Of a DNA stretch of 64,000 bases, positions 15,572 through 32,030 are shown in pieces. Position 1 is the first letter of the stretch. Each line of letters begins with the position of its first letter. The notes below the pieces were generated by a model. That model saw only the letters and a program-made list of their open reading frames with translations. It searched no databases and was not told the origin of the DNA. The DNA is from an uncultured delta proteobacterium (lineage in GTDB: Bacteria > Desulfobacterota > RBG-13-43-22). The position numbers and the translations under genes are program-made. The stretch lies in the NCBI GenBank assembly GCA_963790475.1, contig CAWBOS010000010.1:1472001-1536000 (forward strand), in the 5' to 3' direction.

Positions 15572-15582
15572 GCCTGGCCGAA

Positions 15583-16653
15583 TTATGATCCGCAACGGGA
15601 CCAGGAAACACGAATAACGGTCCCTTTCCCAATTCCGGATTCAAGATCAAAAGAGCCCGAAGAAAGTTGGGCTCTTTCTTTCATGGTGGAAAGACCCAAG
15701 CCTCTTCTGACCCTATCCTGTTCAAACCCTTGCCCGTTATCCTCAATCGTCAATTCTATTCTACCATTTCTTTCTTGAAGAGACAGGCCTACCAGATTGG
15801 CCTGGCTATGTTTGGCGATATTATTCAGGGCTTCCTGACAGACCCTATAGATCGCCGTTTTTAGGAAATCGGTTAACTCCCTTTCCGACAAGTCAATCTG
15901 TTTTTCCAAACGGATGTGCGAATAGGTTCTTTGGTACTCGCGGCAGAACCAGTTGATGGCCGGCACGATTCCCAGGTCATCCAAAAGAGAAGGGCGTAAA
16001 TCAGACATGATCCTGCGGGTTTCTTCGATGACGGATCGAACTCGGTCCAGGAGGTCTTTTAATCCCGCCTGGGTGTTTTCGTCCTGCTCCGTCCGGCCCA
16101 GGATTTTCTCAATACTGAATACGATGGCCCCCAAAGATCCGGCAACGCTGTCGTGAAGCTCCCCGGCAATTCTTTTTCTTTCCTTCTCCTGGGCGTTCAA
16201 AAGTTCTGATGAGAGATATCTGAGTTGTCTTTCTGATTCCTTCAACTGCTCTTCGGCCTGCTGATGCTCCTCCTTTTCTCTTAATTCCTGCAAAGCCCGG
16301 TTCATGGCCGGCACCAGTTTGGAAAGATTATCCTTGAGGATATAGTCGGTTGCTCCATTCTTAAGGGTTTCGATCGCCAGACCTTCCCCCATTTTTCCTG
16401 TAATAAAAATAAAGGGTAGTTCCGGGAATTTTTCCTGTGCAATTTTGAGGGCGGAGATGCCGTCGAAAGCGGGGAGAGAATAGTCGGCAAAGATCAGTTC
16501 AAAATCTTTCTGCGCAAGGGCATCGAGGAAAGCCGCCTGCGTATCAACCCGGACGATGTCGCAGGCCACCCCTTCCGAGATCAGCATTTCCCTTATCAGT
16601 TCCGCGTCTCTCAAATCATCTTCGAGATGGAGTATTCGCAATGATCCTTTCAT
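15583..16653 (-). CDS. Hybrid REC + HisKA_3 histidine kinase
   Basis: ILHLEDD..DYSLP..FITG..K receiver; ERKRIAGELHD; QEALNNIAKHS, DNGQGF, GLGL. Confidence 0.9.
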   Translation of the reverse strand: MKGSLRILHLEDDLRDAELIREMLISEGVACDIVRVDTQAAFLDALAQKDFELIFADYSLPAFDGISALKIAQEKFPELPFIFITGKMGEGLAIETLKNGATDYILKDNLSKLVPAMNRALQELREKEEHQQAEEQLKESERQLRYLSSELLNAQEKERKRIAGELHDSVAGSLGAIVFSIEKILGRTEQDENTQAGLKDLLDRVRSVIEETRRIMSDLRPSLLDDLGIVPAINWFCREYQRTYSHIRLEKQIDLSERELTDFLKTAIYRVCQEALNNIAKHSQANLVGLSLQERNGRIELTIEDNGQGFEQDRVRRGLGLSTMKERAQLSSGSFDLESGIGKGTVIRVSWSRCGS

Positions 16654-16751
16654 GGAATTACCTTTCTTGAGTATCGGAAGTGTCCAGTATTCTCCCGGGT
16701 GACCGGGAATTCAGGTCTCACAGAACAGGGCCTGGGAAATTACCCCGGCAC

Positions 16752-17213
16752 TTACGCCCTGCCCTTTCCCACGCTCCCCGGCGGCGGTTCATTGATCATT
16801 CCCCAGAATATACCGAGTCCTTTAACGGCGTTAATGAATTCATGGAAATCAACGGGTTTCACCACATAGGCATTAACCCCCAACTCATAGCATCTTCCCA
16901 AGTCTTCTTCCTGACGGGAGGAGGTCAGGACGATCACCGGAATTGTCTTTAATTCTTCATCCGCCTTTATCCGGGCCAGCACTTCCAACCCGCTGACCTT
17001 GGGAAGTTTCAGATCGAGCAAAATGGCCGCCGGATTGCCATCAATAAATGTTTCGAAGTTGCCGCTGCGGGATAGATAGGCCAGGGCTTCTTCACCGTCT
17101 CGGGCCACAACCACTTCGTTGACCAGATGGTATTCAGAGAGCGCTTCAAGAGTGAGTTCCACATCTTTAGGATCGTCTTCAACGAGTAAAATGCGTTTCA
17201 TTTCTTTCATCAT
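16752..17213 (-). CDS. Single-domain response regulator (Rcp1-like)
   Basis: ILLVEDD, LLDLKLPKVSGLEVL, LTSS, NAYVVKP, FWGMINEPPP. Confidence 0.92.
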   Translation of the reverse strand: MMKEMKRILLVEDDPKDVELTLEALSEYHLVNEVVVARDGEEALAYLSRSGNFETFIDGNPAAILLDLKLPKVSGLEVLARIKADEELKTIPVIVLTSSRQEEDLGRCYELGVNAYVVKPVDFHEFINAVKGLGIFWGMINEPPPGSVGKGRA

Positions 17214-17229
17214 TTTAAACTTAAACTCC

Positions 17230-18192
17230 TTATTTTGGAAGTGAAAATGAAAAAGTGGCCCCATGGTCTATTTTACCCTCAGCCCAGGTTTGGCCTCCAT
17301 GGCGATGAATGAGGCGCTGGACATTGGCCAGTCCGATGCCCGTTCCTTCAAAGTCCTCCTGACGGTGAAGGCGCTGGAACACGCCAAAAAGTTTGTCTTG
17401 ATATTTCGGATCGAACCCGACCCCGTTGTCCCGAACAAAAAATATAAATTCGTCCTTCTCGGGGATACACCCAATTTCGATTTCGGCTTCCGGCCTCGGC
17501 CGGGTAAACTTCACGGCATTGGAAATAAGATTGACGAACACCAGACGAAGCATTGAGCTGTCACAATAGACTTCCGGCAACTCCCCGACCTTCCAGGCAA
17601 TGTCTCTCTCTTCCGTTTCTTCTTGTAATTCCTTAAGAACTCCCTTTACCAGATCTCCTAAAGGGACCCTGTTCTTCTTCACTTCAGATCGGCCGATACG
17701 TGAAAAAGCTAAAAGGTCATCGATCAAAACCCCCATCTGCTTCGCCGATTCGGAAATGGTATCCAGATAATGGAGAGTAGTCTGATCAAGAACGGAGGAG
17801 GCCTTTTTTTGTAACATCATAGCAAATCCGGTGATATGCCGAAGCGGCGCGCGAAGATCATGAGATATAGAGTATGAAAAACCCTCCAGCTCTTTATTCG
17901 CGGCCTCAAGTTGCGCCGTCCGTTCCAGGAGCTCACGGTTGGCAACTTCCGCTTTGGATCGCTCCACATCAAAGTCTTCCAGGAGGTTCAACATGGCCCG
18001 CTGCGTCTCCTCAAACTGGGTCTTTTCCCCGGCAAAGTCTTCCAGGATGTTCACGGTGGCCCGCTGCATCTCCTCCAGACGGGCCTTCTCTTCCGCGAAG
18101 TCTTCCAGGATGTTGTGCATCGCCTTGGTGTAGTCTTTGATGTCCATGATCGCCGAGGCTACCGGCAATAGCTGAAGGGATTGAGCGATCAT
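17230..18192 (-). CDS. Cytoplasmic HisKA histidine kinase with three N-terminal 21-aa repeats and no sensor domain
   Basis: FSYSISHDLRAPLR, NLISNAVKF, DNGVGF, GTGIGL; 63-bp repeat period (aagtcttccagga at 17972, 18035, 18098). Confidence 0.92.
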   Translation of the reverse strand: MIAQSLQLLPVASAIMDIKDYTKAMHNILEDFAEEKARLEEMQRATVNILEDFAGEKTQFEETQRAMLNLLEDFDVERSKAEVANRELLERTAQLEAANKELEGFSYSISHDLRAPLRHITGFAMMLQKKASSVLDQTTLHYLDTISESAKQMGVLIDDLLAFSRIGRSEVKKNRVPLGDLVKGVLKELQEETEERDIAWKVGELPEVYCDSSMLRLVFVNLISNAVKFTRPRPEAEIEIGCIPEKDEFIFFVRDNGVGFDPKYQDKLFGVFQRLHRQEDFEGTGIGLANVQRLIHRHGGQTWAEGKIDHGATFSFSLPK

Positions 18193-20639
18193 GGTTCGGC
18201 CCTCTCCATCGGCGTCCTCCTCTGCAGCGAATCATTTTCCTTCCGCAGCTCCTCAATCTCCTTCTTCAGGTCGATCATCTTGAGCTCCCGTCCGACCGTC
18301 AGCCTTTGAAACCTCTCCAGTTCCGCCAGCCGCTCCAGCTCACGCGTTCTCTGCTCTTCCCGGGCCCTCTGCTCAGCGAGCTTGGTCTCGGCCTCCTTCT
18401 GGGCCGTAACGTCACGAGCGGCGGCAAAGACGCCGAGAACATTGCCTTGCATGTCCCGGTACACCGAGGCGTTGTAAAGCACATTCGTGAGTCGTCCCTC
18501 CTTATGCCGGATGGTCAGGGGATAGTCGGTAACGAACCCCTTGGAAAAAACCTGCTCGTATCCCCGGCGCGCATTCTCGGGTTCCGTGAAGTAATCTGAA
18601 AAATCCGTCCCGATAAGCCGGTCTCGAGGAATACCGGTTGCTTTCACGGTCGCTTCATTGACGTCGGTGATCTTCCCTTCCGGGCTGATGGTGACCAGGG
18701 GATCAAGGCTCGCCTCAACCAGGGTTCTGGCATACTGGGAGGCTTGACGGATCTGTTCTTCGGCCTGTTTCTTTTCCGAAATGTCATTGCTCATCAGGAG
18801 ATATCCGATGGGGCGGCCCGAACCATCGATACGGCGGGTGACCACAACGCTGGCTATAAAACGGGAGCCGTCTTTCCGGACGCGCTCGAACTCGCCTTCC
18901 GACAGACCCTTTTCATAGGCAACCTTCAGCATTTTTTCCACGACCCCGGACTGAATATCTTCCGGCGTGTGAAGGATGCTCGACTCTTTGCCGATAATCT
19001 CTTCGGCCGCATAGCCGTAATTCCGCCGGGCCCCCTCGTTCCAGGAAAGGATGCGGTAGTTCAGATCTTTTCCGATGATAGAGTACTTGGTTGAGCTCTC
19101 CAGAATATTATCCAGAAAGTTTTTCGTCTCTGAGAACTCGCGCATGACGCGTTTCGATTCCGTTACGTCCCTGGCGGCGGCAAACACCCCCAGAACGTTA
19201 CCGCGCACGTCCTTATAGACCGAGGCGTTATAGAGGACGTCAACCAGAATCCCATCCCGGTGCCGGATGGTCAGAGGGTAATCGGTGACAAAACCCTTCT
19301 CGAAGACCTGCCGGTATCCTTCCCGGGCCTTCTCCGGCTCGGTAAAGTAGTCCGAGAAGTCCGTCCCGACCAGCCGGTCGCGTGGGACACCCGTCACTTT
19401 CACGGTCGCCTCATTGACGTCGGTGATCTTCCCTTCCGGGCTGATGGTCACCAGGGGGTCCAGGCTGGCCTCGATCAGGCTCCTGGCATATTCCGCAGCC
19501 TGCCGCTGGGCGGTGACGTCACGGGCCGCCGCAAAAACCCCCAGGACGTTGCCGGTGACGTCCTTGTAAACCGAGGCGTTATAGAGGACCTCGACCAATT
19601 TCCCATCCCGGTGCCGGATGGTCAGAGGGTAATCGGTGACAAAACCCTTCTCGAAGACCTGCTGGTATCCTTCCCGGGCCTTCTCCGGCTCGGTAAAGTA
19701 GTCCGAGAAGTCCATTCCCACCAGCCTGTCGCGCGGAATACCCGTCACTTTCACGGTCGCCTCATTGACGTCGGTGATCTTTCCTTCCGGACTGATGGTC
19801 ACCAGGGGGTCCAGGCTGGCCTCAACCAGACTCCTGGCATACTCCGCTGCCTGCCGCTGGGCCATAATGTCCCGGGCGGCGGCAAAGACGCCGAGGACAT
19901 GGCCTTGCATGTCCCGGTACACCGAGGCGTTATAGAGGACGTCCGTGAGTCGTCCGTCCTTGTGCCGGATGGTCAGCGGATAGTCGGTGACAAATCCTCT
20001 GGAGAAAACCTGCCGGTAGCCGTCACGCGCACTCTCCGGGTCGGTGAAGTAGTCCGAGAAGTCCGTTCCGATGAGCTTGTCGCGGGGAATACCCGTCACT
20101 TTCACGGTCGCCTCATTGACGTCGGTGATCTTTCCTTCCGGACTGATCGTGACCAGGGGGTCCAGGCTGGCCTCGATCAGGCTCCTGGCGTATTTCGAGG
20201 TCGCCTGCAACTTCTCATCGATGCGTTTACGTTCTGAAATATCCCGGGCGATGGACGAAGCGCCGATGAGCCTCCCTGAGGTATCGTGGATAGGCGAGAC
20301 GGTCAGGGAAACATGGATCAGCGTGCCGTCCTTACGTTTGCGAAGCGTCTCGTAGTGATCAACCCGCTCGCCCTGGCGGATTTTGGCCAGGATTTCTTCC
20401 ATTTCCATCGGTCGGTCCGGGGCGAGAAGGATAGTGACCGGCTGGCCGATAATTTCCTTCGCGGTATACCCGTACATTATTTCCGCAGCGCGGTTCCAAC
20501 TGGTAATAATCCCTTCCAGGGTTTTGCCGAAGACGGCATCATCGGAGGAATCCACGATGGAGGCCAGGAGTGCCGTCCGTCCCTCCTCTAACGGTGACAT
20601 GGCTCTGTCTTTTTTCTTCTTCTTACCGTTAACTTCCAT
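18189..20639 (-). CDS. Six-PAS sensor protein without output domain, ending in a coiled coil
   Basis: PAS1, three tandem 117-aa PAS repeats, PAS5, a fourth repeat copy, then ...FQRLTVGRELKMIDLKKEI...; GGGAGG RBS; ATGA overlap with the kinase. Confidence 0.9.
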   Translation of the reverse strand: MEVNGKKKKKDRAMSPLEEGRTALLASIVDSSDDAVFGKTLEGIITSWNRAAEIMYGYTAKEIIGQPVTILLAPDRPMEMEEILAKIRQGERVDHYETLRKRKDGTLIHVSLTVSPIHDTSGRLIGASSIARDISERKRIDEKLQATSKYARSLIEASLDPLVTISPEGKITDVNEATVKVTGIPRDKLIGTDFSDYFTDPESARDGYRQVFSRGFVTDYPLTIRHKDGRLTDVLYNASVYRDMQGHVLGVFAAARDIMAQRQAAEYARSLVEASLDPLVTISPEGKITDVNEATVKVTGIPRDRLVGMDFSDYFTEPEKAREGYQQVFEKGFVTDYPLTIRHRDGKLVEVLYNASVYKDVTGNVLGVFAAARDVTAQRQAAEYARSLIEASLDPLVTISPEGKITDVNEATVKVTGVPRDRLVGTDFSDYFTEPEKAREGYRQVFEKGFVTDYPLTIRHRDGILVDVLYNASVYKDVRGNVLGVFAAARDVTESKRVMREFSETKNFLDNILESSTKYSIIGKDLNYRILSWNEGARRNYGYAAEEIIGKESSILHTPEDIQSGVVEKMLKVAYEKGLSEGEFERVRKDGSRFIASVVVTRRIDGSGRPIGYLLMSNDISEKKQAEEQIRQASQYARTLVEASLDPLVTISPEGKITDVNEATVKATGIPRDRLIGTDFSDYFTEPENARRGYEQVFSKGFVTDYPLTIRHKEGRLTNVLYNASVYRDMQGNVLGVFAAARDVTAQKEAETKLAEQRAREEQRTRELERLAELERFQRLTVGRELKMIDLKKEIEELRKENDSLQRRTPMERAEP
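19165..20215 (-). repeat. Three tandem 351-bp PAS-encoding repeats (fourth copy ~18410-18745)
   Basis: Equivalent gcaaa positions at 19180, 19531, 19882; near-identical peptide YARSL.EASLDPLVTISPEGKITDVNEAT... Confidence 0.9.
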
Positions 20640-20682
20640 CGTATTTCCCTCCCTTGTCAGGATTTTTTCCGCCCAGAAATTC

Positions 20683-22752
20683 TCAGTCCTTTTTTTGACT
20701 TTGGATAGATCCGCTCCATATTGAAAGGCCGCCCCACTCCGCCCGAATAATCGTCCCCTTTCCCTCGGCCGATTCAAGGTCGAAAAATCCGCCCGATAGC
20801 TGAGCCCGTTCTCTCATGGTTGAAAGCCCCAGTCCCTTCCTGACCGTCTTGGGGTCAAACCCTTCCCCGTTATCCTTTATGATCAAGGTTATTTTTTCGG
20901 CCTTCTTTTGAAGAGAAATATTCACTAGGGAGGCCTGGCTGTATTTGGAGATATTATTCATGGCCTCCTGGGAAATTCGAAAAATCGGCGTTCTCAGAGG
21001 ATCGGGCACTTCCGATTCTAAAATTCCGATATGACTTTCCACGGAAATATGAGGATAAGTCTTTTGGTATTCCCGGCAGAACCAGCTCATAGCGGCCACG
21101 ATCCCCAGGTCATCCAGGACGGCCGGCCGCAGGTCGACCATGATCCGGCGAACTTCAGTAATGATCTCGGAAACTTTAGAGGCGAGGTCCTGCAGGGATT
21201 CAGTACTGCTCTCCCCTCGTTTCGTCTCCGCCGTTATTTTCTCAATTCCGATTTTCATCGCCGCCATGGAGGCTAAGGTGCTGTCATGCAGTTCCCCGGC
21301 AATCCTTTTCCTCTCTTCCTCCTGAATGGTCAGGGATTGGGAGGCAAAATATCGAACCTGGTCATGCGCCTTTTTTAAGTTTTCCTCGGCCTTCTTCCGC
21401 TCGGTGATATCAATATCCATCTCCAGGATCAGGGGCGATCCATCGGCATCGATAAAGGGAAAATCATAGGCATCAAGGATACTGCCGTCCGGAGTGGTGA
21501 CCTCCCAATGATGGGGTCTACCGGTTTCCAGAACTTGGTATGATTCACAGAAATCGCAGGGTCGGCTAAGTCCGAAACGATATTCATAGCAGCGCCGGCC
21601 GTCTGATTCTGCGAATTTCTCCCGAGAAGACCGGTTGGCAAAAGCTACGCCATAGTCGGGGGTCAACAGGCAGATCATAGCCGGCAGCGTTTCCAGAACG
21701 TCATAAAGGCGCCGGCGTTCGGCCTCGACTGCTTCGACCACCTGCCGGCGTGCCTCGCTCTGGCGCAATAACTCTTCGGTTCGCCGGCGCTCGGTGATGT
21801 CGCGGAAGACGAGCACAAGGCCGGTAATATTTCCCTCCCGGTCTTTTATGGGCGCGCCGCTGTCGTCAATCGGGACTTCTGTTCCGTCTTTCCTCACCAG
21901 GAGCGCGTTGTAGTCCGGACCGGCGATTATCCCTTCCCGGAGCACCTTGCAAACGGGGCCCTCGGCCCGGCAGCGGGTTTCCTGGTTGATGATGTTAAAG
22001 ACCTCCTCCACCGGCTTTTCCGCCGCTTGGCCAAGAGTCCAACCGGTAAGCCTTTCGGCCACGGCATTCATAAAGGTAACCCGGCCCTCAACATCGGTGG
22101 CGATGACCGCATCGCCGACACTGGACAAGATGGTGGCCCAGCGCTGTTCACTTTCCCGGAGGGCCGCTTCCGCCTGCAGACGCACGGCGATCTCTTCTTC
22201 GAGGCTTTTGTTGGAGACCTGCAGCTCGGCGGTGCGCTCCTTTACCAAATCCTCCAGGTGGACCTGGTAGGTGCGGAGCTGCCTTTCCTTGGATATCCTG
22301 TCCAGGGTGGTTCCGGCGATCCCGGTCAGGGCTAAGTAAAGGTTAAGTAACTCAGGTCGAACGGGAGTGGAAGACTTGTGGCCGATGAGGAGCACCGTCG
22401 TCGTCCGATTCGACTCGGGTAAGGGCAAAAAGAGGACCCCATAGGATTCGGAACCCAAGACCGTTTCGGTGGCCAGGAATCCGGTCTCCAGCACGTCATG
22501 GATGATCCCTTTGACCTTCTCCGACAAGATCCCCCCGGGCAGGTCTTCACCGCCCATGACCCGATTCTCAAGGGAGATCTTCCCCCCAGAGTCCAGCCGG
22601 GCAAAGGCGACCCACTCCGCCTTGAAATAACTGACGATGAGACGCCCAAACTCCTCGAGGATGTTTTGTTGAGCGGTGAGCCGGACGATATATTGCGCGG
22701 CCTTTATAAAACTTTCTACATATGGTCCTTGATAGGAAGGCTCTTCCGACAT
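20683..22752 (-). CDS. GAF-like + PAS + PAS HisKA_3 histidine kinase
   Basis: N-terminal GAF-like region, VGDAVIATD..N..AE PAS, EERKRIAGELHD, DNGEGF, GLGL. Confidence 0.88.
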   Translation of the reverse strand: MSEEPSYQGPYVESFIKAAQYIVRLTAQQNILEEFGRLIVSYFKAEWVAFARLDSGGKISLENRVMGGEDLPGGILSEKVKGIIHDVLETGFLATETVLGSESYGVLFLPLPESNRTTTVLLIGHKSSTPVRPELLNLYLALTGIAGTTLDRISKERQLRTYQVHLEDLVKERTAELQVSNKSLEEEIAVRLQAEAALRESEQRWATILSSVGDAVIATDVEGRVTFMNAVAERLTGWTLGQAAEKPVEEVFNIINQETRCRAEGPVCKVLREGIIAGPDYNALLVRKDGTEVPIDDSGAPIKDREGNITGLVLVFRDITERRRTEELLRQSEARRQVVEAVEAERRRLYDVLETLPAMICLLTPDYGVAFANRSSREKFAESDGRRCYEYRFGLSRPCDFCESYQVLETGRPHHWEVTTPDGSILDAYDFPFIDADGSPLILEMDIDITERKKAEENLKKAHDQVRYFASQSLTIQEEERKRIAGELHDSTLASMAAMKIGIEKITAETKRGESSTESLQDLASKVSEIITEVRRIMVDLRPAVLDDLGIVAAMSWFCREYQKTYPHISVESHIGILESEVPDPLRTPIFRISQEAMNNISKYSQASLVNISLQKKAEKITLIIKDNGEGFDPKTVRKGLGLSTMRERAQLSGGFFDLESAEGKGTIIRAEWGGLSIWSGSIQSQKKD

Positions 22753-22755
22753 CGC

Positions 22756-24360
22756 TTAATTCCCGGCCATGGGTTGAAGAAAAAGACTCTCCAGGAATAG
22801 ATCCTCAAATTCGGGAACCTGAGAAAGATTGATGATTTTCGATTTCTCTCTTAAGCGCTGAAGACCATCGCCCTTTCCGTTTGACAAAAGGAGAAACTCA
22901 CATCCTCTCAGGGCGGCGTTACCACAGAGTTCAACACGTTCAGGGGAGATGAAAGGAAGCAAGCCGATTTCCTGGGCATTCCGGATATTCAAGTAATTGC
23001 CAAAACTGCCGCAAATAGAAATGCGTTGCAGTGACTCGGCACTCATCCGGGCGGATTTTAGCAAGAACCGCACTCCGGCGCCGATGGCGGCCTTGGCTCG
23101 TTGAAACAGGTCTATATCCCCGCCATCCAAAAAGAGACCCGGATTGTCCACCGACAAGACGAATCTCCTTTCCGGCAGTTCAGCAGTGATTCGTCCTTTT
23201 TTATCAACTTTTCCTGTTTTTGTCAAATAGGCGATGAGATCGACCAGACCGGAGCCGCAAAAGCCCTGGGCATTTTCATCGCCGATGACCTGGGCAGCCA
23301 GTCCCATCCCTTCGTTTTGTTCGATCTTATAAATCGCACCAGGTCCGGCCGGCATCCCGCATTTCATTCCGCTTCCCTCAAAAGCCGGTCCTCCGGCGGC
23401 CGAGGTGACCCACAAGCAGGTTCCATCCCATAGAGCGATCTCGGAATTGGTGCCGAAGTCAATCAAGAGACCGGCCGCGGTTTCGGTCAGACGGGTACTG
23501 AGCACACCGGCCAGAAGATCAGAACCAATAAAACCGGCCAGGGGTTGATGAAGATTGACCGAGACTTCAGCCCTTAAATTTACTGTCTCAAACCAGTTTT
23601 TTGTACTTTCGGGACGACAATCGATGGACCTCGTCCAGTATCGGGGTTGAGAAAGCAGGTCCAGGCCCTTTTCAGCCAGCAAAGCCGTCATGGCGGTATT
23701 GCCGACGATCGCTATGGTCCTTATCTTCCAGGGATCGTACCCTTCGCTTGAACACACCTCCAGAAGTCCTTCAGCCAGGCAGTCTTTTACGGTTTGGCTT
23801 ATTTCCCGGGCGGATTCCTTTGACTGGCTGGCCGCCTGCAGCCGGGTCATGACGTCGGAGCCATAACGCGACTGCCAATTAAGCCCCGAGACTGCCGACA
23901 GACGCTGGTTTCTGGAAATGTCCCACAAGGACAGGCTTACGGTCGTGGTTCCCAGGTCGATGGCCAGGCCATAAGCGGGATCATCGGGTTCCGCAGCCTT
24001 TTCCAATGATCGGTGGAGAGAAGTCCAATCCGGAATTTCACCCGGGTTCAGTTTTCGCCAGTTGGGCCGGGGGGCCGGTCTCAAGATCCTGATCCGGAGG
24101 TCATCGGCGCCGATCACCTGGCAGGCCAATCGAACTCCGTCCTGAAGCTCCTTTTCGGAAAGAAGAAGGGTCTCGTTTTTGGTAGGCCCTGGCACCCTGC
24201 CGGCCAAAACTTGAATGCGGCACAAACCGCATGCCCCTGATCCCCGGCAACCGGTTCGAACCCGCAGGTCAGTGGTGTCGAGCACTTCCCGCAATGACTT
24301 CCCTGGTGTAAAAGCGATCAAACGGTCTTTGGGGTTACTTAAAACCCAAAGAAGGGGCAT
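22756..24360 (-). CDS. ASKHA-type reductive activator of corrinoid proteins (RACo/DUF4445) with N-terminal 2Fe-2S domain
   Basis: CRGSGACGLC..RLAC; IDLGTTT, DFGTNSEI, SAAGGPAFEG, GFCGSGL. Confidence 0.88.
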   Translation of the reverse strand: MPLLWVLSNPKDRLIAFTPGKSLREVLDTTDLRVRTGCRGSGACGLCRIQVLAGRVPGPTKNETLLLSEKELQDGVRLACQVIGADDLRIRILRPAPRPNWRKLNPGEIPDWTSLHRSLEKAAEPDDPAYGLAIDLGTTTVSLSLWDISRNQRLSAVSGLNWQSRYGSDVMTRLQAASQSKESAREISQTVKDCLAEGLLEVCSSEGYDPWKIRTIAIVGNTAMTALLAEKGLDLLSQPRYWTRSIDCRPESTKNWFETVNLRAEVSVNLHQPLAGFIGSDLLAGVLSTRLTETAAGLLIDFGTNSEIALWDGTCLWVTSAAGGPAFEGSGMKCGMPAGPGAIYKIEQNEGMGLAAQVIGDENAQGFCGSGLVDLIAYLTKTGKVDKKGRITAELPERRFVLSVDNPGLFLDGGDIDLFQRAKAAIGAGVRFLLKSARMSAESLQRISICGSFGNYLNIRNAQEIGLLPFISPERVELCGNAALRGCEFLLLSNGKGDGLQRLREKSKIINLSQVPEFEDLFLESLFLQPMAGN

Positions 24361-24365
24361 CGGAG

Positions 24366-25379
24366 CTAACCTTGCTCGACCGAGGCCTGAACCAGGGCTT
24401 GGATATTTTCTTCTTTTGACTCCGGCGGGATCTCACAACCCGAAGAAAGGATAAAACCCCGGCGTCCGGCAAAGGACTGCATTAAGAGGGAGGCCTCGGC
24501 CTTGATTTCTTCGGGGTCTTCCTCAACAAAAGAAAGGGACTTGATGTTTCCATCAAGGCAGGTATGCGGGAGAAGGCTTTGGGCTTTTGTCGCTGTGATG
24601 TCATAATCAAAATTAGCAATATCAACATCGGCCTGAGGGTAGAATCCTAAGATCGACTGGACCGGACCGGCGATGTGCAGCCAGTTAGCCAGGGCGCCGG
24701 CCTTTTTGAAAGTCCCGAAAATCTTCTTCAGTCGGGGCAGTTCAAGCTCGCGAAAGATTTGGTAGGGCACCACGGCCGGGGAAGCGAAAGGATCAAAAAC
24801 GATCGGTAGATGAGCCCCGGCTTCGATCTGAGCCAGGCCGAAGCGGATAATCACGTCGGCGGCCAAGTCCACCAGGGTCCCTAACCGTTCGAGATCATCA
24901 ATGGCTAAGTAAAGGGTTTCTTCCGGGCCTAACAATTGGGCGGCCAGGGTGAGCGGGCCGGCGACACAGCCGACAATCAGAACTTCTTCACCAAGTTCTT
25001 GACTCATTATTTTTAAAGCTTTCAGCATCTCAGGCATGCGGCCCGTGCGTTCCGGGTCGGGTAAGGGGCATCCGTCCCAGGCACTGTTTTTATCAAACAC
25101 CGGCTGCTCGATCACCGGATATAAATTCTTCCGGTAGCGGATCCTGGCCCCTAATGCCTCATTTTCCACGTTCATATCCATAACCGAAAAGACCGCATCA
25201 TAGCCATATCGTTCCAGGGCTTTTATCTGGCAGCGGGCCAGCAATTCACCGTCTTGGACATAGTCCCCGAGAGCGACCCCGGCCATAACCCCGGCATGTC
25301 CGAAAACCTGAGCGATGACCGGCACTCGGTCGGATTCTTCAAATGCGGCCGCAGACCCAATCCGTTGGAGGCTGTTCAT
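24366..25379 (-). CDS. UroD-superfamily corrinoid methyltransferase (MtaA/CmuA-like)
   Basis: DRVPV, EALGA, GRMP, GPLTLA, LHIAG, LDGNI, GFILSSGCEIP. Confidence 0.85.
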   Translation of the reverse strand: MNSLQRIGSAAAFEESDRVPVIAQVFGHAGVMAGVALGDYVQDGELLARCQIKALERYGYDAVFSVMDMNVENEALGARIRYRKNLYPVIEQPVFDKNSAWDGCPLPDPERTGRMPEMLKALKIMSQELGEEVLIVGCVAGPLTLAAQLLGPEETLYLAIDDLERLGTLVDLAADVIIRFGLAQIEAGAHLPIVFDPFASPAVVPYQIFRELELPRLKKIFGTFKKAGALANWLHIAGPVQSILGFYPQADVDIANFDYDITATKAQSLLPHTCLDGNIKSLSFVEEDPEEIKAEASLLMQSFAGRRGFILSSGCEIPPESKEENIQALVQASVEQG

Positions 25380-25648
25380 TGGCTTCTCCTTCGAGCAATA
25401 CCGGCGATGAAATCAGCCCCATCGAAAGCGGATTCAGCCACATAATCGACGTTCAACCACTCGGGCGAAAGCTGCTTCAGGGCCGCGCCCCCAGCGATAA
25501 TTTTCACCTGTTCGAGCTTTCGTTCTTTGAGGAGGGGTCTAACCTGTCTGACCAAGGAAGCAACGAGACTGATCAAGCCGCTGATGCCGACAGCAACCGG
25601 CTTTTCCCGTTCGACCGTGTCCACCACGGAAAATCTATCCGGGAGTGA
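25376..25648 (-). pseudogene. Corrinoid (B12-binding) protein, C-terminal half only
   Basis: VGISGL...VKIIAGGAA...DYVAESAFDG; in-frame stop just upstream, DxHxxG motif absent. Confidence 0.75.
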
Positions 25649-25959
25649 TCAATAAGCTCTCCCATGGTATCATAAAAGGATAGTTCCATTCGTTTTCCAG
25701 CTCACCTGCCCAATCGTAGGTATCCCGGGAAATAATCATTAATTGTCTATAATGGGACAAATTTTGCATTATTATAGCCATTAAGACTTGTTTTCCCCGG
25801 TTAATCTTAACCTTCCAGGATTTCCTTTTTATCCGTAACCTGTTAAATTAATAGTAATTTAACCGTTAAATATACTGATGGCCTAATTGTTGCAACTGGG
25901 ACAATAGAAAGTAACTGGGAAAATGAGATTTTCCCTCTTTACCAGAAACAGGAGTAGCT

Positions 25960-26298
25960 ATGAGATATTTTAAGGATGACGTTCTTAGAGCGGATGAAGT
26001 ATCGAGATGGCTGAGAATTCCCAAATCGACCACTTATAAGCTTTGCCTGGAAGGTCAGATCACTGGGACAAAAATAGACAGACATTGGCGGTTTGACCAA
26101 AAAGATATTGAAGTTTGGTTCAAGAAAATAATTAATAATGAAATCAGGAGATTGGCTGATGACAACGAGTCGTTCATACGGGGTTTCTCCGACGGATTCA
26201 TATCCTATGTCGAAAACCCTGTTTATAATTCGAAACAAAGAAGAAATCGACATTACCGTTCAAGAAGTAAAACAAAAACAAAATCATCCAATGTCTGA
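25960..26298 (+). CDS. Excisionase-like HTH DNA-binding protein
   Basis: LRADEVSRWLRIPKSTTYKL...G.I...KIDRHWRF; AGGAG RBS. Confidence 0.7.
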   Translation: MRYFKDDVLRADEVSRWLRIPKSTTYKLCLEGQITGTKIDRHWRFDQKDIEVWFKKIINNEIRRLADDNESFIRGFSDGFISYVENPVYNSKQRRNRHYRSRSKTKTKSSNV

Positions 26299-28189
26299 AA
26301 AACCTCTCTACAACAGTAGAATACTGAATACCTACATTGAATTTACTAAAATAAATTATCCCTATGTCAATATTCAGGATTTATTAAAATATGCCCAAGT
26401 GGAATCCTATCAGATAAGTGATGAAGGGCACTGGTTTACTCAAGAGCAACATGACCGATTTCATGAGAAACTGGTAGAGTTAACCGGAAATAAGGACATT
26501 GCCCGGGAAGTAGGGCGATACGCCGCCTCTTCCAAAGGAGCGGGATTACTTAAACAATATGCCCTTACCTGGATCGGCCCCTTAATGGCCTATTCCATGT
26601 TAGGTCATGTCACTTCCAAGTTTACAAGATCCTTCGTTTATCAGTCCAGAAAAGTTTCCCCCAATACCGTAGAGATCACCGTAACTCCTCAAGAAGGTGT
26701 TCAAGAAAAACTTTATCAGTGCGAAAACAGGTTGGGGATGTTCCAGGCCATCGTTGATATTTTTGATTATAAAATATCCCGGACAGATCATACTGAATGT
26801 ATTTTTAAGGGGGGAAAGGTCTGCCGCTATATTATTTCCTGGGAGGCCTCCCCTTCTTCCTTTTGGAAAAGAGTTAGAAATATCAGCGTGGTTCTTTCAT
26901 TACTGGCCGGAGGTGTTTTGATTCCTCTTTTCCCTTGGGATACCATCGTTATTCTTTCAATTCTTCTTGTTTTCATATCGTTAAGTTATGTTATTAATTT
27001 ATCGGAAAAGAAAGAGTTAAAAACCACCATAAATAATTTTAGGGTATTGGCAGAACAACAAATTGATCAAATTGATATCAACTATAAAAATGCTTTGATG
27101 ATCAATGAGATTGGACAGGCCATCAGTAAAAAGTTAAATATTAACGATATCCTGGAAAATATTATGCGCGCCCTGGAGATACGGCTGGATTATGACCGGG
27201 GAATGATCCTCCTGGCCAATCCGGAAAAAACTCGATTGATTTATTCTGCCGGTTATGGAGTAAACGAGGAACAACTGAAGGTCATTAGAACTACTTTTTT
27301 CCATTTGGATAACCCCGAATCCAAAGGGGTCTTTGTCCTTTGCTTTCATTCACAGAAACCTTTCCTGATTAACGATGTTGATCAACTACAAGGAAACATT
27401 TCAGAAAAAAGTTTCGAATTCCTTAGAGGGACCGGGAGCAAATCCTTTGTTTGTTGTCCTATCATTTACGAGAAAGACTCATTAGGGGTCCTGGTAGTCG
27501 ATAATATTGTAAAAAAGCGAGATTTGACTCAAACGGATATAAGCATAATGTTAGGAATCGCCCCTCAAATTGGGATCAGCATCAACAATGCCCTGTTGAT
27601 AGAGCAACAAAAAGCACAATTTAATTCAATTTTAAGAGTTCTGGCGGCCTCCATTGATGCCCGGGATCCGTTAACGGCCGGTCATTCCGAAAAGGTGACC
27701 GAATATTCGATTGGCATAGCCAAGGAATTGGGGTTTGGGGAAGATTATTGTGAGGTCATAGGAATAGCAGGGCTGCTCCACGATTATGGTAAGTTGGGCG
27801 TAAGGGATGATATTCTAAAAAAAGCCGGAAAGCTCACGACTGAAGAGTATTTAGAAATACAGTCTCATGCTTTAAAAACAAAATTGATTTTGGATCAGAT
27901 GAATTTCAGCGGTAATTATTCTGACATCCCCTTATTGGCAGGTTCCCATCATGAAAAGATGGACGGCAGCGGGTACCCCAATGGTTTGAAGGGAGATGAG
28001 ATTCCCTTGGGTGCCAGGATTATTGCTGTGGCCGATGTCTTTGAAGCCTTAACCGCTAAGCGACACTATCGAGATCCGATGAATATTGATGAAGCGATCA
28101 GGCATTTGAGAGAAGGGATCAACACTGCCTTCGACCAAAAAATTGTCGAAGCCTTCTTAAAATATTATCAAAAAGCTTATAACATATAA
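26291..28189 (+). CDS. HD-GYP phosphodiesterase with V4R/HNOB-like N-domain, 2 TM and GAF
   Basis: C..EC...CRY N-domain; GAF; TAGHSEKV, LLHDYGK, HHEKMDGSGYP, VADVFEALT. Confidence 0.88.
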   Translation: MSEKPLYNSRILNTYIEFTKINYPYVNIQDLLKYAQVESYQISDEGHWFTQEQHDRFHEKLVELTGNKDIAREVGRYAASSKGAGLLKQYALTWIGPLMAYSMLGHVTSKFTRSFVYQSRKVSPNTVEITVTPQEGVQEKLYQCENRLGMFQAIVDIFDYKISRTDHTECIFKGGKVCRYIISWEASPSSFWKRVRNISVVLSLLAGGVLIPLFPWDTIVILSILLVFISLSYVINLSEKKELKTTINNFRVLAEQQIDQIDINYKNALMINEIGQAISKKLNINDILENIMRALEIRLDYDRGMILLANPEKTRLIYSAGYGVNEEQLKVIRTTFFHLDNPESKGVFVLCFHSQKPFLINDVDQLQGNISEKSFEFLRGTGSKSFVCCPIIYEKDSLGVLVVDNIVKKRDLTQTDISIMLGIAPQIGISINNALLIEQQKAQFNSILRVLAASIDARDPLTAGHSEKVTEYSIGIAKELGFGEDYCEVIGIAGLLHDYGKLGVRDDILKKAGKLTTEEYLEIQSHALKTKLILDQMNFSGNYSDIPLLAGSHHEKMDGSGYPNGLKGDEIPLGARIIAVADVFEALTAKRHYRDPMNIDEAIRHLREGINTAFDQKIVEAFLKYYQKAYNI

Positions 28190-28228
28190 TCAATGAAAGA
28201 TCTCGCTGAATTTCCTGGGCCGTAGTCC

Positions 28229-28324
28229 CTGGATGAGATAGAAAAAAACAAGGGTATCCTCTATAATCCCGAGGTCGTGGATGCAGGTCTAAGGCTTTTC
28301 AGGGAGAAGGAGTATACGTTTTAG
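28229..28324 (+). pseudogene. HD-GYP C-terminal remnant
   Basis: LDEIEKNKGILYNPEVVDAGLRLFREKEYTF* with no start. Confidence 0.65.
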
Positions 28325-28397
28325 TTATAGATGCTTAGTCTAATAAAAGGGTATTCCGGAAATACCCCATGCCTACTGGAAATTGGAGAAATAAAAG

Positions 28398-29747
28398 ATG
28401 AAATCTGAGATTCAGACTGAAGAACAACTGATCCGGGAATTGGAAGATCTTCGTTGTAGGACTGCTGAACTCGAAAAATCAGAAGCCGATCGCAAACAGG
28501 CAGAGGAAGCACTGCGGGAATCGGAGGAGAAATATCGTTCCCTGGCATCAACTGAAGACTCCCTGTATTCCGTAGACAGGGAAGGCCGGTATCGGTTAAT
28601 GAACAAGGCCCACTTGTTGAGGCTTGGCCTGTCATTGGATAAGGTTATAGGCAGAATCTATGGGGAGTTCCATTCGCCAGAAGATACAAAACAGTTCTCT
28701 GATAAAGTTGAAGCGGTGTTCGCCACAGGCAATTCTTTCCAAACCGAACATAGAAGCGAAAGAGATAATAAATATTTCCTCCGGACATTTAGTCCGATTA
28801 AAGACTTACAGGGAAACATTACTGACATCACAGTTGTTTCCAAAGACATCACTGAGCGCAAGCAGGCGGAAGATGCCTTGTGGAAAAGCGAGGAGCGCTA
28901 TCGCGACATCCTGGATAGCATCGAAGAAGGATACTATGAGGTGGATATTGCCGGGAACCTCACCTTCTTCAATGATTCCTTGTGTGACTTGCTTGGGTAT
29001 TCCAGGGATGAGTTGATGGGCCTGAACAGCCGTCAGTACACAGACGAGGAGAACGCTGCTAAGCTCTACAAGGCCTTTAATGAAGTGTATCGAACAGGAA
29101 TCCCGGCAAAGAGTTTTGATTGGCAAGTGATCAGGAAAGATGGGACAACCGGATTTGGAGAGGTTTCCGTTTCGCTTATTCGGGATGGGAGGGGTAATAT
29201 CACAGGCTTTCGGGGGATCGCCAGGGACATCACCGATCGAAAAAAATTAGAAGAGGCCCTCAAAACCCTGTCTCTCAAAGATGACCTGACCGGCTTATAT
29301 AACCGCCGGGGATTCTTTGCTTTGGCCGAGCAGGGATTGAAGGCAGCCCAACGAAATGGAACAGAGGTTTTGCTCATTTATGGAGACTTGGATAATTTAA
29401 AAGGAATTAATGATACCCTCGGACATCAAGAAGGAGATCAGGTTTTAATTGATATATCCAACATTCTTAAAGAAACCTTTCGTGAGTCAGATGTCGTCGC
29501 CCGTATGGGGGGAGATGAATTTGTCATGCTGGCCATGAATTGTAATGAGGTTTCGGCGGAAAAGCTGATTATTCGCTTTGAGAAAGCCTTGAATGAGCAT
29601 GAGTCCCAAAGAAAACGCCCTTACCCACTTTCCATGAGCCTGGGTACTGCATGTTTTGACCCTCAGAAATCCTGTTCCATAGAGGACCTGCTTACCCAGG
29701 CGGACAAGATCATGTATGAGAATAAACAAAAAAGAAAAAGGAAGTGA
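28398..29747 (+). CDS. PAS-PAS diguanylate cyclase
   Basis: DDLTGLYNRR, DLDNLKGINDTLGH, RESD I-site, ARMGGDEF. Confidence 0.92.
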   Translation: MKSEIQTEEQLIRELEDLRCRTAELEKSEADRKQAEEALRESEEKYRSLASTEDSLYSVDREGRYRLMNKAHLLRLGLSLDKVIGRIYGEFHSPEDTKQFSDKVEAVFATGNSFQTEHRSERDNKYFLRTFSPIKDLQGNITDITVVSKDITERKQAEDALWKSEERYRDILDSIEEGYYEVDIAGNLTFFNDSLCDLLGYSRDELMGLNSRQYTDEENAAKLYKAFNEVYRTGIPAKSFDWQVIRKDGTTGFGEVSVSLIRDGRGNITGFRGIARDITDRKKLEEALKTLSLKDDLTGLYNRRGFFALAEQGLKAAQRNGTEVLLIYGDLDNLKGINDTLGHQEGDQVLIDISNILKETFRESDVVARMGGDEFVMLAMNCNEVSAEKLIIRFEKALNEHESQRKRPYPLSMSLGTACFDPQKSCSIEDLLTQADKIMYENKQKRKRK

Positions 29748-30063
29748 GAAGGGGATGAAGAAAATCATGAAAACCCAATAAAAATCGAATTGAGGGGAAA
29801 CTTGAAAAGCAAAATTACTGAGATCCCAATTTCATACCCTACGCGGTCTAAGAATAGCTTGAGTAAAGGATCCGTACCCGTCGCTTTTGGCTCTTTGGCT
29901 GAAATTCCCGCTGTATCCTCCGGACACTTCAACGACGGGGATTCATCCTTATGAAAGTAATGAAAAAAGGCAAAAAGGGCAAAGACAAAATTATTTGTAA
30001 GCTTGTTGTAACAAGGGAAAACCTTTTGGGGATAATAAATTCTATAAAAAGTCCTTATAAAGA

Positions 30064-31818: not shown

Positions 31819-31985
31819 GCTAAAGATTTTTGGCCACTGCTTTCTTTAAGCACATTTCGAAACGGTATTCGTTAATTTTCGAAGAGATCGCTTTAAAACA
31901 GTTGAAGTCGCCAAGGGGAAGGGTCTGCCTTTTCTTTCCCCTTTGTTTCCTTATAGCTGTAAAGTCCAGACCTGCTAAGGCCCGT

Positions 31986-32030
31986 TTTTCTCCTTGACCT
32001 GGCCTTTTTCTCATCTTATACTTTTCAATA
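31986..32030 (+). promoter_or_regulatory. Repeated promoter module, copy 2 (most diverged)
   Basis: TTGACC(31994)-17-TATACT(32017). Confidence 0.6.

Follow-up and report, generated by a model that had tools for sequence, protein, structure and literature searches.

Corrinoid methyl-transfer systems of the MtaC/MtaA/RamA type occur in methanogens and acetogens and include the methanol-, methylamine- and methylthiol:CoM systems as well as MtqC/MtqA of Eubacterium. To our knowledge, the complete triad of corrinoid protein, methyltransferase and activase has so far been known only from C1 catabolism. The B12-based sensing known to us is limited to riboswitches and single-protein photoreceptor regulators; those of the CarH/LitR and AerR type each consist of one protein that relies on adenosyl- or hydroxocobalamin and has DNA-binding partners as its targets. 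A further relevant system is mec, a regulated catabolic pathway that includes a PocR sensor domain, a regulator that binds DNA, a transporter and four methyltransferases, one type being MtrH (10.1101/2021.08.30.458270).

Here we analyse a 64-kb window (the whole stretch of DNA under study) in which genes for a corrinoid protein, an MtaA-like methyltransferase (MT) and a RACo-type reductive activase run directly into genes for a signalling cascade. A first-pass annotation of this DNA had proposed that the methylation or redox state of cobalt is read by a GAF-like domain of the adjacent kinase.

Results

Organization of the locus

The features of the locus are as follows:

25700..32100, no strand: low-G+C segment (0.35–0.50) adjoining the truncated gene, outside the cassette (G+C profile, Pfam)
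25630..25700, no strand: breakpoint at which corrinoid-gene similarity stops and low-G+C DNA starts (G+C profile)
25376..25627, minus strand: corrinoid-protein remnant of 83 aa, 5′-truncated (partial Pfam B12-binding match, orthologue alignment)
24366..25379, minus strand: MtaA-like (URO-D fold) methyltransferase, MT (Pfam URO-D)
22756..24360, minus strand: RACo-type reductive activase with 2Fe-2S ferredoxin, middle and ASKHA ATPase domains (Pfam)
20683..22752, minus strand: sensor kinase with GAFx, PAS, Cys-motif region, HisKA_3 and HATPase_c (Pfam, translation, 32 homologues of the N-terminal domain)
22228..22752, minus strand: GAFx, the divergent GAF-fold N-terminal sensor domain of this kinase and marker of the cassette (AlphaFold2, Foldseek)
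18189..20639, minus strand: 6xPAS protein without a kinase domain (Pfam, six PAS stretches)
17230..18192, minus strand: HisKA-HATPase_c kinase core, the other part of the split sensor/kinase (Pfam, coordinates)
16752..17264, minus strand: stand-alone receiver (Pfam Response_reg, 73 bits)
15583..16653, minus strand: receiver-HisKA_3-HATPase_c hybrid kinase (Pfam)

The positions that the first-pass annotation gave for the eight ORFs, all of them minus-strand, and its spacings were reproduced: the corrinoid ORF ends at 25376 and MT starts at 25379 (a 4-bp overlap, or –4), 5 bp separate the end of MT (24366) from the start of RACo (24360), and 3 bp separate the end of RACo (22756) from the start of the kinase (22752). 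Pfam likewise bore out the identities given to MT (URO-D), RACo (Fer2, Raco_middle and RACo_C_ter) and the kinase (PAS, HisKA_3 and HATPase_c), as well as the downstream order of split sensor/kinase, lone receiver and REC-kinase (6xPAS, HisKA-HATPase, receiver and REC-HisKA_3-HATPase). The kinase core starts on the stop codon of the 6xPAS protein (ATGA overlap). In the 6xPAS protein a 351-bp PAS-coding unit is present as 2.9 tandem copies (repeat at 19165–20194); the start of this protein at 20639 was taken as the first ATG past the kinase stop.

The low-G+C segment encodes an HTH_17 protein, a GAF-HD-GYP protein and two PAS-GGDEF proteins (Pfam). Its flanks gave short and weak repeat matches only and carried no mobile-element signature. 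A promoter and terminator scan of 15300–26300 returned counts at chance level, with no site upstream of the truncated corrinoid gene.

The corrinoid gene is apparently truncated in this genome

The first-pass annotation had overlooked that the corrinoid ORF is truncated; it is an 83-aa C-terminal remnant. The ORF covers positions 44–108 of the 121-position Pfam B12-binding profile (23 bits; cut-off 32.1). In an alignment with 31 full-length orthologues, each about 200 aa long, it matches the final ~80 columns only. It has neither the N-terminal four-helix cap (B12-binding_2) nor the DxHxxG histidine loop, from which cobalt receives its lower ligand; the latter is kept in the 31 orthologues, with D95, H97 and G100 each at 90% or above. 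About 125 N-terminal codons, the cobalt-binding histidine loop among them, have been lost. An in-frame TGA stands 8 codons upstream of the GTG start of the remnant, and at the end of the remnant G+C drops from 0.52–0.57 to 0.36. A genome-wide tblastn search (E ≤ 0.01) returned neither the missing 5′ half nor any other piece of the gene; contig C6 does encode a 32%-identical corrinoid protein, a candidate substitute. A 219-nt contig of sequencing run X1 matches 25610–25828, across the breakpoint, with zero differences; this run is possibly the source sample, so the match is not independent.

Window MT, RACo and kinase retain every family-invariant residue. With the corrinoid gene broken and its three neighbours intact, either the damage is very recent or the kinase has no strict need of the corrinoid protein. 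Owing to this truncation, the local copy is probably unable to function in the way proposed below unless a corrinoid protein comes from elsewhere; the input module of this genome is thus probably disabled or reliant on another corrinoid protein.

Cassette enzymes fall outside the curated families

The full-length corrinoid orthologue of G018, a relative of this genome, scored 100.7 bits against TIGR02370 (MtaC/MtbC type), below the cut-off of 215.3. Corrinoid proteins of the cassette have a mean column identity of 69% across phyla and both domains of life. Window MT matches Pfam URO-D over residues 5–332 (217 bits), and its nearest solved structure is MtaA (4AY7, E = 1.3e-24); it scored 147.8 bits against TIGR01463 (MtaA/CmuA, cut-off 235.4) and 115.5 against the MtaA equivalog (cut-off 400). 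In MtaA, H-x-C ... C is the zinc site of a thiol-methylating enzyme. The H-I-C of 4AY7 aligns with H-I-A in window MT, and among 38 cassette MTs the motif ‘WLHIAGP’ is present in 35 and the later cysteine of ‘GCE’ in all 38.

For window RACo, Pfam gave Fer2 (40.6 bits), Raco_middle (108) and RACo_C_ter (215.5) and no match to the RACo_linker domain; the translation contains DLGTTT and DFGTNSE motifs. The nearest solved structure is RACo 3ZYY (E = 3e-66), whose cobalt-binding Ser398 aligns with Ala in window RACo, with a Ser two residues earlier (one pairwise alignment). NCBIfam scores were 275.8 bits for AcsV (cut-off 800) and 91.5 for the RamA model (cut-off 500). All NCBIfam scores are under the curated cut-offs, and the three cassette enzymes form subfamilies of their own.

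The N-terminal domain of the kinase is a divergent GAF fold

The kinase begins with GAFx (aa 1–175), followed by PAS (204–324), a region with a C-x11-C-x2-C motif, HisKA_3 (480–546, Pfam) with the phospho-acceptor ‘ELHDS’ in the translation, and HATPase_c (589–671, Pfam). Motifs GFLATE, FLPL, IGH and LLNLYLAL, which the first-pass annotation quoted for its GAF-like domain, are all found in the N-terminus. The fold supports a GAF assignment and Pfam does not: no Pfam model matched GAFx residues 1–175, and kinase residues 1–200 gave no match to GAF, GAF_2 or GAF_3 at E ≤ 0.01. An AlphaFold2 model of the domain (pLDDT 85.3, pTM 0.79) retrieved GAF domains 4G3K, 6OAP and 3CI6 as top Foldseek matches (probability 1.0, TM 0.59–0.62, 11–15% identity). 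A second PAS domain, also claimed for this kinase, was not confirmed: Pfam has no match for it in this protein, and the orthologue in G009 has a weak PAS_4 match (E = 7e-4).

GAFx family members number 394 cluster representatives (E ≤ 1e-3) in 1.84 billion proteins. Residues Q20, Y21, G91, F92 and P110 are invariant in the 81–82 sequences that cover each position, and Y139 is kept in 81 of 82. The conserved His125 was considered as a universal axial cobalt ligand and ruled out, as 9 of the 82 sequences lack it (73 have it).

GAFx and the methyl-transfer genes occur together

We scanned one genome per species, which gave 49 GAFx loci. By record title, the hosts are delta-proteobacteria, Syntrophorhabdales, Nitrospirota, Chloroflexi, Acidobacteriota, Actinomycetes, Planctomycetes and Fermentibacteria, along with three archaeal lineages, Methanothrix, Methanocellaceae and Methanoregulaceae. 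Cassette genes lie directly upstream on the same strand in 47 of the 49 loci, so this GAF subtype does consistently come after the RACo trio, as the first-pass annotation had wondered; the two exceptions are the GAFx proteins of L044 and L046, with no cassette nearby. Where enough upstream sequence was available, the corrinoid protein was found in 41 of 43 loci (at least 3.4 kb) and MT in 42 of 44 (at least 2.7 kb). RACo is full in 41 of the 49 loci, represented by its Fer2 domain alone in 5, and absent in either form from 3. The same gene order, with full-length genes, is seen in G009 and G018, both related to this genome.

In the reverse survey, a corrinoid-protein alignment was compared with metagenome contigs and the best 80 of 387 relatives were kept. 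Among these best 80 of 387, MT follows in all 48 contigs with at least 1.1 kb downstream, while the contigs with at least 3.5 kb downstream show MT in 29/29, GAFx in 28/29 and RACo or Fer2 in 24/29; next to one corrinoid-MT pair (L072) there are convergent genes and not GAFx. RACo is missing from L040 and from eight metagenome loci, the latter also among the best 80 of 387. The minimal conserved set is corrinoid protein, MT and GAFx. As the invariant residues of GAFx persist in forms without RACo, they probably serve something other than RACo binding.

Fusions and varied outputs, with no conserved catabolic partner

Several GAFx proteins are fused to the activase or to its ferredoxin domain. 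P0012 and P0013 (1053 and 1057 aa) are RACo-GAFx-HisKA_3 kinases, and Fer2-GAFx-HisKA kinases are found as P0021 and P0029 and at loci L025, L027 and L028; in Nitrospirota forms RACo is reduced to its ferredoxin domain. The outputs attached to GAFx are varied (44 GAFx ORFs were scanned, of which 34 contribute here), which was the other part of the proposed neighbourhood check: HisKA, HisKA_2 (L026, L032), HisKA_3 (L035 and the window), hybrid receivers and SpoIIE phosphatase (L034, L040, L046). A lone receiver lies downstream of the GAFx protein in 8 other loci, and receiver-plus-kinase proteins follow also at L026, L042, L047, L051 and L060. None of 42 co-directional downstream proteins combines a receiver with a DNA-binding domain, and Pfam detected no HTH in the cassette proteins.

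Clustering of all ORFs from the 49 loci recovered only GAFx proteins, RACo, the corrinoid protein and MT, then lone receivers (10 loci); it gave no conserved fifth gene, whether a second methyltransferase, a transporter or a C1-carrier gene. The earlier statement that no MT1 or methyl-THF gene is nearby agrees with Pfam on the window neighbours and with genome-wide profile matches. MTTB had no match in the whole genome (marker-gene completeness 100%, contamination 9.68%), nor had DUF1638; all four Pterin_bind matches are outside the window, and the only one on the same contig is about 1.2 Mb away. A picture of trios mostly in catabolic operons with the GAF subtype unlinked to them did not emerge, as GAFx follows the corrinoid subfamily of the trio in 28/29 contigs (among the best 80 of 387) and no catabolic partner is conserved.

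Discussion

There is good support for a functional connection of the methyl-transfer module with signalling, because the association holds in 47/49 loci and in 28/29 contigs (among the best 80 of 387 relatives), the outputs are varied, GAFx is found fused to RACo or its ferredoxin, and there is no conserved catabolic partner. What the link is for can be stated less firmly. We consider it reasonably probable that the widespread cassette is a B12-based sensory input module, in which corrinoid protein, MtaA-like MT and RACo feed the GAFx signalling protein. We infer a sensing and not a catabolic role for the module; the cobalt state that is read is likewise inferred. MT and RACo would set the protein-bound cobalt to one of the states Co(I), Co(II) and methyl-Co(III). 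This state would be read by GAFx, which would dock the corrinoid protein or act via RACo, and which would then switch the kinase or phosphatase joined to it. Here the signal might pass from the HisKA_3 kinase to the PAS protein and kinase core, on to the receiver and finally to the receiver-kinase. In the RACo–CoFeSP complex, cobalt is near-quantitatively Co(II), with a serine of RACo bound to it (PMC4934906). RACo may in this sense be regarded as an already known cobalt-state reader, and a complex with a Co(II) partner is the kind of property that a sensor would need. Points that weigh against the sensory reading are the exceptions at L044, L046 and L072, the incomplete conservation of His125, the Ala opposite Ser398 in window RACo (one pairwise alignment), and the intact MT, RACo and kinase beside a broken corrinoid gene.

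A more specific version of the sensory reading takes the cobalt-methyl bond itself as the signal: the dedicated corrinoid protein would be kept methylated by MT, an oxidant or light would convert it to Co(II), RACo would engage it and relay the event via GAFx to the kinase, and ATP-driven re-reduction with re-methylation would reset the system. We regard this version as unlikely. If true, it would add a new class to the B12-based sensors, one for redox or light that is reset by enzymes and shared by anaerobic bacteria and archaea. In the literature searched, a B12-based sensory input module such as the cassette as a whole is apparently undescribed; the photoglobin and mec papers, both considered as prior descriptions, concern different systems.

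The trio could instead be a small metabolic or detoxifying methyl-transfer system, e.g. a single-enzyme methylthiol-type or methyl-metalloid one, with the GAFx kinase as its cis-encoded regulator: GAFx would bind the substrate and the relay would control expression. One URO-D-type enzyme could in principle serve both half-reactions and, as with MtsA/MtsB, one MtaA-like enzyme with a corrinoid protein could be catalytically complete. Kinase regulation of corrinoid methyltransferase operons has also been described, in mec, for the PocR-domain kinase MecA and the regulator MecD (10.1101/2021.08.30.458270). Such a regulator, however, would here be the final gene of one tightly spaced operon, is fused to RACo or its ferredoxin domain in several lineages, has varied outputs that include a phosphatase, is followed by a DNA-binding response regulator in 0/42 downstream proteins, and is not regularly accompanied by genes for a further methyltransferase, a transporter or a C1 carrier. 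The hosts, moreover, include bins of Methanothrix, Methanocellaceae and Methanoregulaceae, which are not known to be methylotrophic. Taken together, we find the metabolic alternative unlikely. A different role for the same chemistry would be modification of the signalling protein, either by transfer of a methyl group from methyl-corrinoid via MT onto GAFx or the relay (a B12 counterpart of chemotaxis-type adaptation) or by cobamide loading or repair for the kinase. The loss of one H-x-C ... C ligand of MtaA, with H-I-A in 35 of 38 MTs, hints at an unusual acceptor, and a minimal set of corrinoid protein, MT and GAFx would suit such a role. Yet no methyl-accepting residue is identifiable, with His125 not invariant, the fusions with RACo or ferredoxin speak for cobalt redox chemistry and not for a methyl sink, and we know of no precedent for B12-dependent methylation of a sensor protein, so we hold this role to be very unlikely.

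For the window alone, it might be asked whether the adjacency is a mere remnant, i.e. a decayed methyl-transfer operon beside functionally unlinked signalling genes, as the corrinoid gene truncated at a compositional break and the further signalling genes in the neighbourhood could suggest. The neighbourhood survey contradicts this for the cassette as a whole: the order is found with full-length genes in 47/49 and 28/29 loci (the latter among the best 80 of 387), G009 and G018 included, and even here MT, RACo and the kinase keep their family-invariant residues. We hold a mere remnant to be extremely improbable.

If the sensory reading is true, a corrinoid methyl-transfer triad has been recruited as an input to two-component and phosphatase signalling in many anaerobes, methanogen lineages among them. 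Through such an input anaerobes could monitor methyl donors, low-potential redox state, oxidants or light. It would also account for genomes that have corrinoid, MtaA-like and RACo genes but gave no match for a pathway gene in their vicinity. For annotation, cassette genes should not count as evidence of methylotrophy.

Comparison with known systems

The cassette shares with MtaC/MtaA/RamA systems a cap-plus-Rossmann corrinoid protein with DxHxxG (in the cassette orthologues), a URO-D-fold MT and an ATP-dependent activase. It differs from them in having no substrate-specific MT1 or second methyltransferase, in the H-I-A of its MT as opposed to H-x-C, in NCBIfam scores below cut-off, and in the signalling protein that almost always comes next and is sometimes fused. 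Its activase has the Fer2, middle and ASKHA architecture of the CoFeSP activator RACo of Carboxydothermus hydrogenoformans (3ZYY, 4C1N), whereas its partner is a small MtaC-like protein and not CoFeSP, RACo_linker is not detected, Ala aligns at Ser398 in the one pairwise alignment, and kinase fusions occur (P0012/P0013).

In mec, which serves dichloromethane catabolism, a histidine-kinase gene likewise accompanies corrinoid-protein, MtaA/CmuA methyltransferase and RACo-like activator genes (10.1101/2021.08.30.458270); of the additional mec components named above, none is conserved around the GAFx cassette. The cassette proteins are also distinct from CarH: the NCBIfam CarH model scored 26.4 bits against a cut-off of 400, and no MerR-type DNA-binding domain is fused. 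With CarH/LitR and AerR the cassette would share the use of a B12-binding domain for signalling rather than catalysis; in contrast to those regulators, it is proposed to be an enzyme trio with ATP-driven reduction that feeds two-component signalling.

Organization of the cassette in the window

The cassette consists of genes for a corrinoid (B12) protein, an MtaA-like methyltransferase (MT) and RACo, located upstream of a sensor kinase. In the window, eight co-directional ORFs (ORF calls; families by Pfam) extend on the minus strand from 25627 to 15583:

25627-25376, minus: B12-binding fragment, 83 aa
25379-24366, minus: URO-D/MtaA-like methyltransferase (MT), 337 aa
24360-22756, minus: RACo, 534 aa, with Fer2, middle and ASKHA domains
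22752-20683, minus: kinase, 689 aa, with an N-terminus without Pfam family, one PAS, HisKA_3 and HATPase_c
following the 689-aa kinase, minus: protein with six PAS domains
starting on the stop codon of the six-PAS protein, minus: HisKA-HATPase core
following the HisKA-HATPase core, minus: lone receiver
last of the eight, ending at 15583, minus: REC-HisKA_3-HATPase protein

The spacings of -4, 5 and 3 bp given by the first-pass annotation for the first four genes agree with these coordinates, and Pfam analysis of the window genes bears out its observation that no MT1-type or methyl-THF gene lies nearby; the other window genes encode redox enzymes, transport and signalling functions.

The gene for the six-PAS protein contains a 351-bp unit in 2.9 tandem copies (19165-20194, 86% matches), and thus several of its PAS domains are recent internal duplications; these domains also match PF24820, a diguanylate-cyclase-like sensor domain (Pfam). 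A 63-bp tandem repeat (2.3 copies, 17970-18114) gives the HisKA kinase core a repeated 'ILEDFAEEK'-type motif at its N-terminus.

The kinase carries a divergent GAF-fold head

Residues 1-175 of the kinase, for which no Pfam match was obtained, were modelled with confidence from a 16-sequence alignment (pLDDT 85.3, pTM 0.79). The predicted fold is a five-stranded sheet flanked by helices, with a long helix at the C-terminal end, and GAF domains are its closest matches in the PDB (4G3K, 6OAP, 3CI6 and others; Foldseek probability 1.0, TM ~0.6, 11-15% identity). We refer to this domain as GAFx. When 1.84 billion cluster representatives were searched by profile, 394 proteins matched at E<=1e-3, 201 of these at E<=1e-30; the domain almost always occupies the extreme N-terminus, in proteins of 130 to 1921 aa. 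Residues Q20, Y21, G91, F92 and P110 are invariant (81-82 sequences covering each position), Y139 is present in 81/82 sequences and His125 in 73/82.

Between PAS and HisKA_3, residues 335-475 of the kinase (window ~21330-21750) contain a C-x11-C-x2-C motif that is kept in the orthologue from the related genome G009 and in homologues P0006, P0012 and P0013. The G009 counterpart gives a weak PAS_4 match only, and the region may be a PAS-like domain that binds a metal or a cluster.

GAFx and the cassette are linked in both directions

Among 61 genomes searched, comprising this one and its relatives, GAFx was additionally found only in G009, of the same genus, and G018, of the same family, both with the window's order of corrinoid protein (205 aa in G018), MT, RACo and GAFx kinase. 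In the G009 cassette (L011, G009:C16:44000-63999), the genes for corrinoid protein, MT and RACo carry many frameshifts and GAFx is interrupted by a TAG; a MASE3 kinase upstream of it is split as well, which suggests general sequence errors of the assembly rather than cassette decay.

A search with the GAFx alignment, in which each species was represented by one genome, yielded 49 loci, with L021 duplicating the G009 locus. By record title, the hosts are delta-proteobacteria, Syntrophorhabdales, Nitrospirota, Chloroflexi/Anaerolineae, Acidobacteriota, Actinomycetes, Thermoguttaceae, Phycisphaerales, Fermentibacteria, Methanothrix, Methanocellaceae and Methanoregulaceae. Cassette genes, identified by tblastn with the cassette proteins, lie directly 5′ of GAFx on the same strand in 47/49 loci. 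Of the 43 loci having at least 3.4 kb upstream, 41 contain the corrinoid protein; MT occurs in 42 of the 44 having at least 2.7 kb. RACo is full in 41 of the 49 loci, reduced to its ferredoxin domain in five (L025, L027, L028, L030, L038) and missing altogether from three, one of which (L040) keeps corrinoid protein and MT; the other two, L044 and L046, are without any cassette gene.

In the opposite direction, the corrinoid-protein alignment was searched against metagenome contigs, and the best 80 of at least 387 relatives were followed. Within this set, MT was found at all 48 loci having at least 1.1 kb downstream; where the downstream sequence reaches 3.5 kb or more (29 loci), MT occurs in 29 cases, GAFx in 28 and RACo or Fer2 in 24, the sole GAFx-less locus (L072) having convergent genes past MT. 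Given 47/49 and 28/29, the linkage holds both ways, and the GAF subtype is indeed tied to the trio. The opposite outcome envisaged in the first-pass annotation, trios lying mainly in catabolic operons and no link between them and the GAF subtype, was looked for in the survey and not seen.

Fusions, outputs and neighbouring genes

Among 32 GAFx homologues, P0012 (1053 aa) and P0013 (1057 aa) are in-frame fusions of RACo with a GAFx-HisKA_3 kinase, while P0021 and P0029 are Fer2-GAFx-HisKA proteins, an architecture identical to that in L025, L027 and L028 (Pfam). Output domains were read with Pfam in 34 of the 44 GAFx ORFs: HisKA is commonest, often with a receiver, and the others are HisKA_2 (L026, L032), HisKA_3 (L035 and the window) and SpoIIE phosphatase (L034, L040, L046). 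A few GAFx proteins are split, with the kinase half as the next ORF.

Of 42 proteins encoded downstream in the same direction, none joins a receiver to a DNA-binding domain. Lone receivers occur at eight loci and combined receiver and kinase proteins in L026, L042, L047, L051 and L060, like the pair of receiver and receiver-kinase in the window. One IclR regulator was seen, as third gene downstream in L024. When every ORF at the 49 loci was clustered, only the GAFx proteins, RACo, the corrinoid protein and MT formed widely shared families, the next being receivers (10 loci); no shared family of second methyltransferase, MT1, transporter or C1-carrier emerged. At L029:14503-17634, the gene after a GAFx hybrid kinase of 1454 aa encodes a PAS-containing CheB-CheR fusion.

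The corrinoid gene of the window is a remnant

The corrinoid-MT-RACo-kinase order of the first-pass annotation stands as a layout, but its first gene is incomplete. The 83-aa ORF matches the Pfam B12-binding profile at positions 44-108 of 121 only, under the cut-off, and can be aligned only to the final ~80 columns of 31 full-length orthologues (~200 aa); the cap domain and DxHxxG loop are missing, and an in-frame stop lies 8 codons 5′ of its GTG. The rest of the gene was not found elsewhere in the genome by tblastn with two orthologues, the matches beyond the remnant being two different corrinoid proteins (32% and 24% identity, contigs C6 and C11).

Similarity stops at ~25630-25650, the point where G+C drops from 0.52-0.57 to 0.36. 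The adjoining segment (25700-32100, ~6.4 kb) has a G+C of 0.35-0.50 versus 0.55 on either side and encodes an HTH_17 (excisionase-like) ORF, a GAF-HD-GYP protein and two PAS-GGDEF proteins (Pfam); no flanking repeats, mobile-element marks or integrase were seen in it. A 219-nt contig from a public run matches 25610-25828 without difference; since this run is possibly the genome's source sample, the match argues only against a scaffolding artefact at the breakpoint. Another low-G+C stretch, at 4-10 kb, includes 7217-8320 and 9968-10783 and holds a DUF4325 (STAS-like) protein with HATPase_c_2 and an IS1-like transposase fragment.

MT, RACo and kinase of the window are full length and keep family-invariant residues. 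The local module lacks its own corrinoid protein, and this copy is probably either recently disabled or borrowing another corrinoid protein.

The cassette enzymes form their own subfamilies

The three cassette enzymes form subfamilies of their own. Their NCBIfam scores all stay under the curated cut-offs: 100.7 versus 215.3 for the corrinoid protein, 147.8 versus 235.4 (TIGR01463) and 115.5 versus 400 (MtaA) for MT, and 275.8 versus 800 (AcsV) and 91.5 versus 500 (RamA) for RACo. The closest solved structure to MT is MtaA 4AY7 (E 1.3e-24); the H-I-C of MtaA is H-I-A in the cassette MT ('WLHIAGP' in 35/38) and the later cysteine is kept in 38/38; in MtaA these positions bind zinc. RACo matches 3ZYY at E 3e-66; in the pairwise alignment, Ser398, which ligates cobalt in the known complex, is opposite Ala, with a Ser two residues earlier. 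Corrinoid proteins show an unusually high mean column identity of 69% over bacteria and archaea, which fits a strongly constrained unit that spreads by transfer.

The genome (6.34 Mb, 20 contigs, 100% complete by markers, 9.68% contamination) gave no match for MTTB or DUF1638. None of its four Pterin_bind matches is in the window; a single one is on the same contig, ~1.2 Mb off. Three further RACo genes (contigs C6, C11 and C15; L005-L007) have no kinase in view. One belongs to a canonical methyl-transfer operon (222-aa corrinoid protein, 425-aa URO-D enzyme, pterin-binding enzyme, then Fer2 and RACo), which adjoins AMP-binding enzymes; another is beside a CooC-like gene; the third, without ferredoxin domain, adjoins a PLP-dependent decarboxylase.

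A possible sensory mechanism

The first-pass annotation proposed a corrinoid methyl-transfer module wired into signalling for B12-based sensing. The survey and the fusions bear this proposal out in part: the link to signalling is strong, though the local copy is damaged. In the known system, as described in PMC4934906 with citation of Hennig et al. 2012 and 2014, Co(I) corrinoids oxidise to inactive Co(II); cobalt in the RACo-CoFeSP complex is near-quantitatively Co(II), with a RACo serine as cobalt ligand, and RACo re-reduces it using ATP and its 2Fe-2S cluster. By extension, MT and RACo would set the state of the dedicated corrinoid protein, GAFx would read this state, directly or via RACo or its ferredoxin domain, and would then switch the output. 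The smallest conserved set is corrinoid protein, MT and GAFx, and the invariant GAFx residues are retained in RACo-less forms; because of this a signal passing solely through RACo seems less likely than one in which GAFx would touch the corrinoid protein or MT, or bind its own ligand. The sensed quantity might be a methyl donor or acceptor, a low-potential redox state, an oxidant or light.

Chance adjacency of trio and signalling genes is contradicted by the neighbourhood survey. The cassette could also be a small metabolic system whose regulator kinase is encoded in cis, for which the mec cassette offers a precedent (10.1101/2021.08.30.458270), yet this fits poorly with fusions to the signalling protein, phosphatase outputs and the absence of DNA-binding regulators and of further pathway genes. 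Less probably, the cassette may methylate the sensor itself in a B12-dependent reaction, or may serve to handle the cofactor. The sensory reading builds on a conserved operon, fused in places to its signalling protein, which starts with a GAF-fold head and has variable outputs, and on the lack of catabolic partners.

No description of the cassette was found in the openly accessible full-text literature, and at the family level it is apparently an undescribed kind of sensory system. In the mec cassette, a PocR kinase regulates a catabolic pathway (10.1101/2021.08.30.458270), and the photoglobin paper deals with another B12-linked domain.
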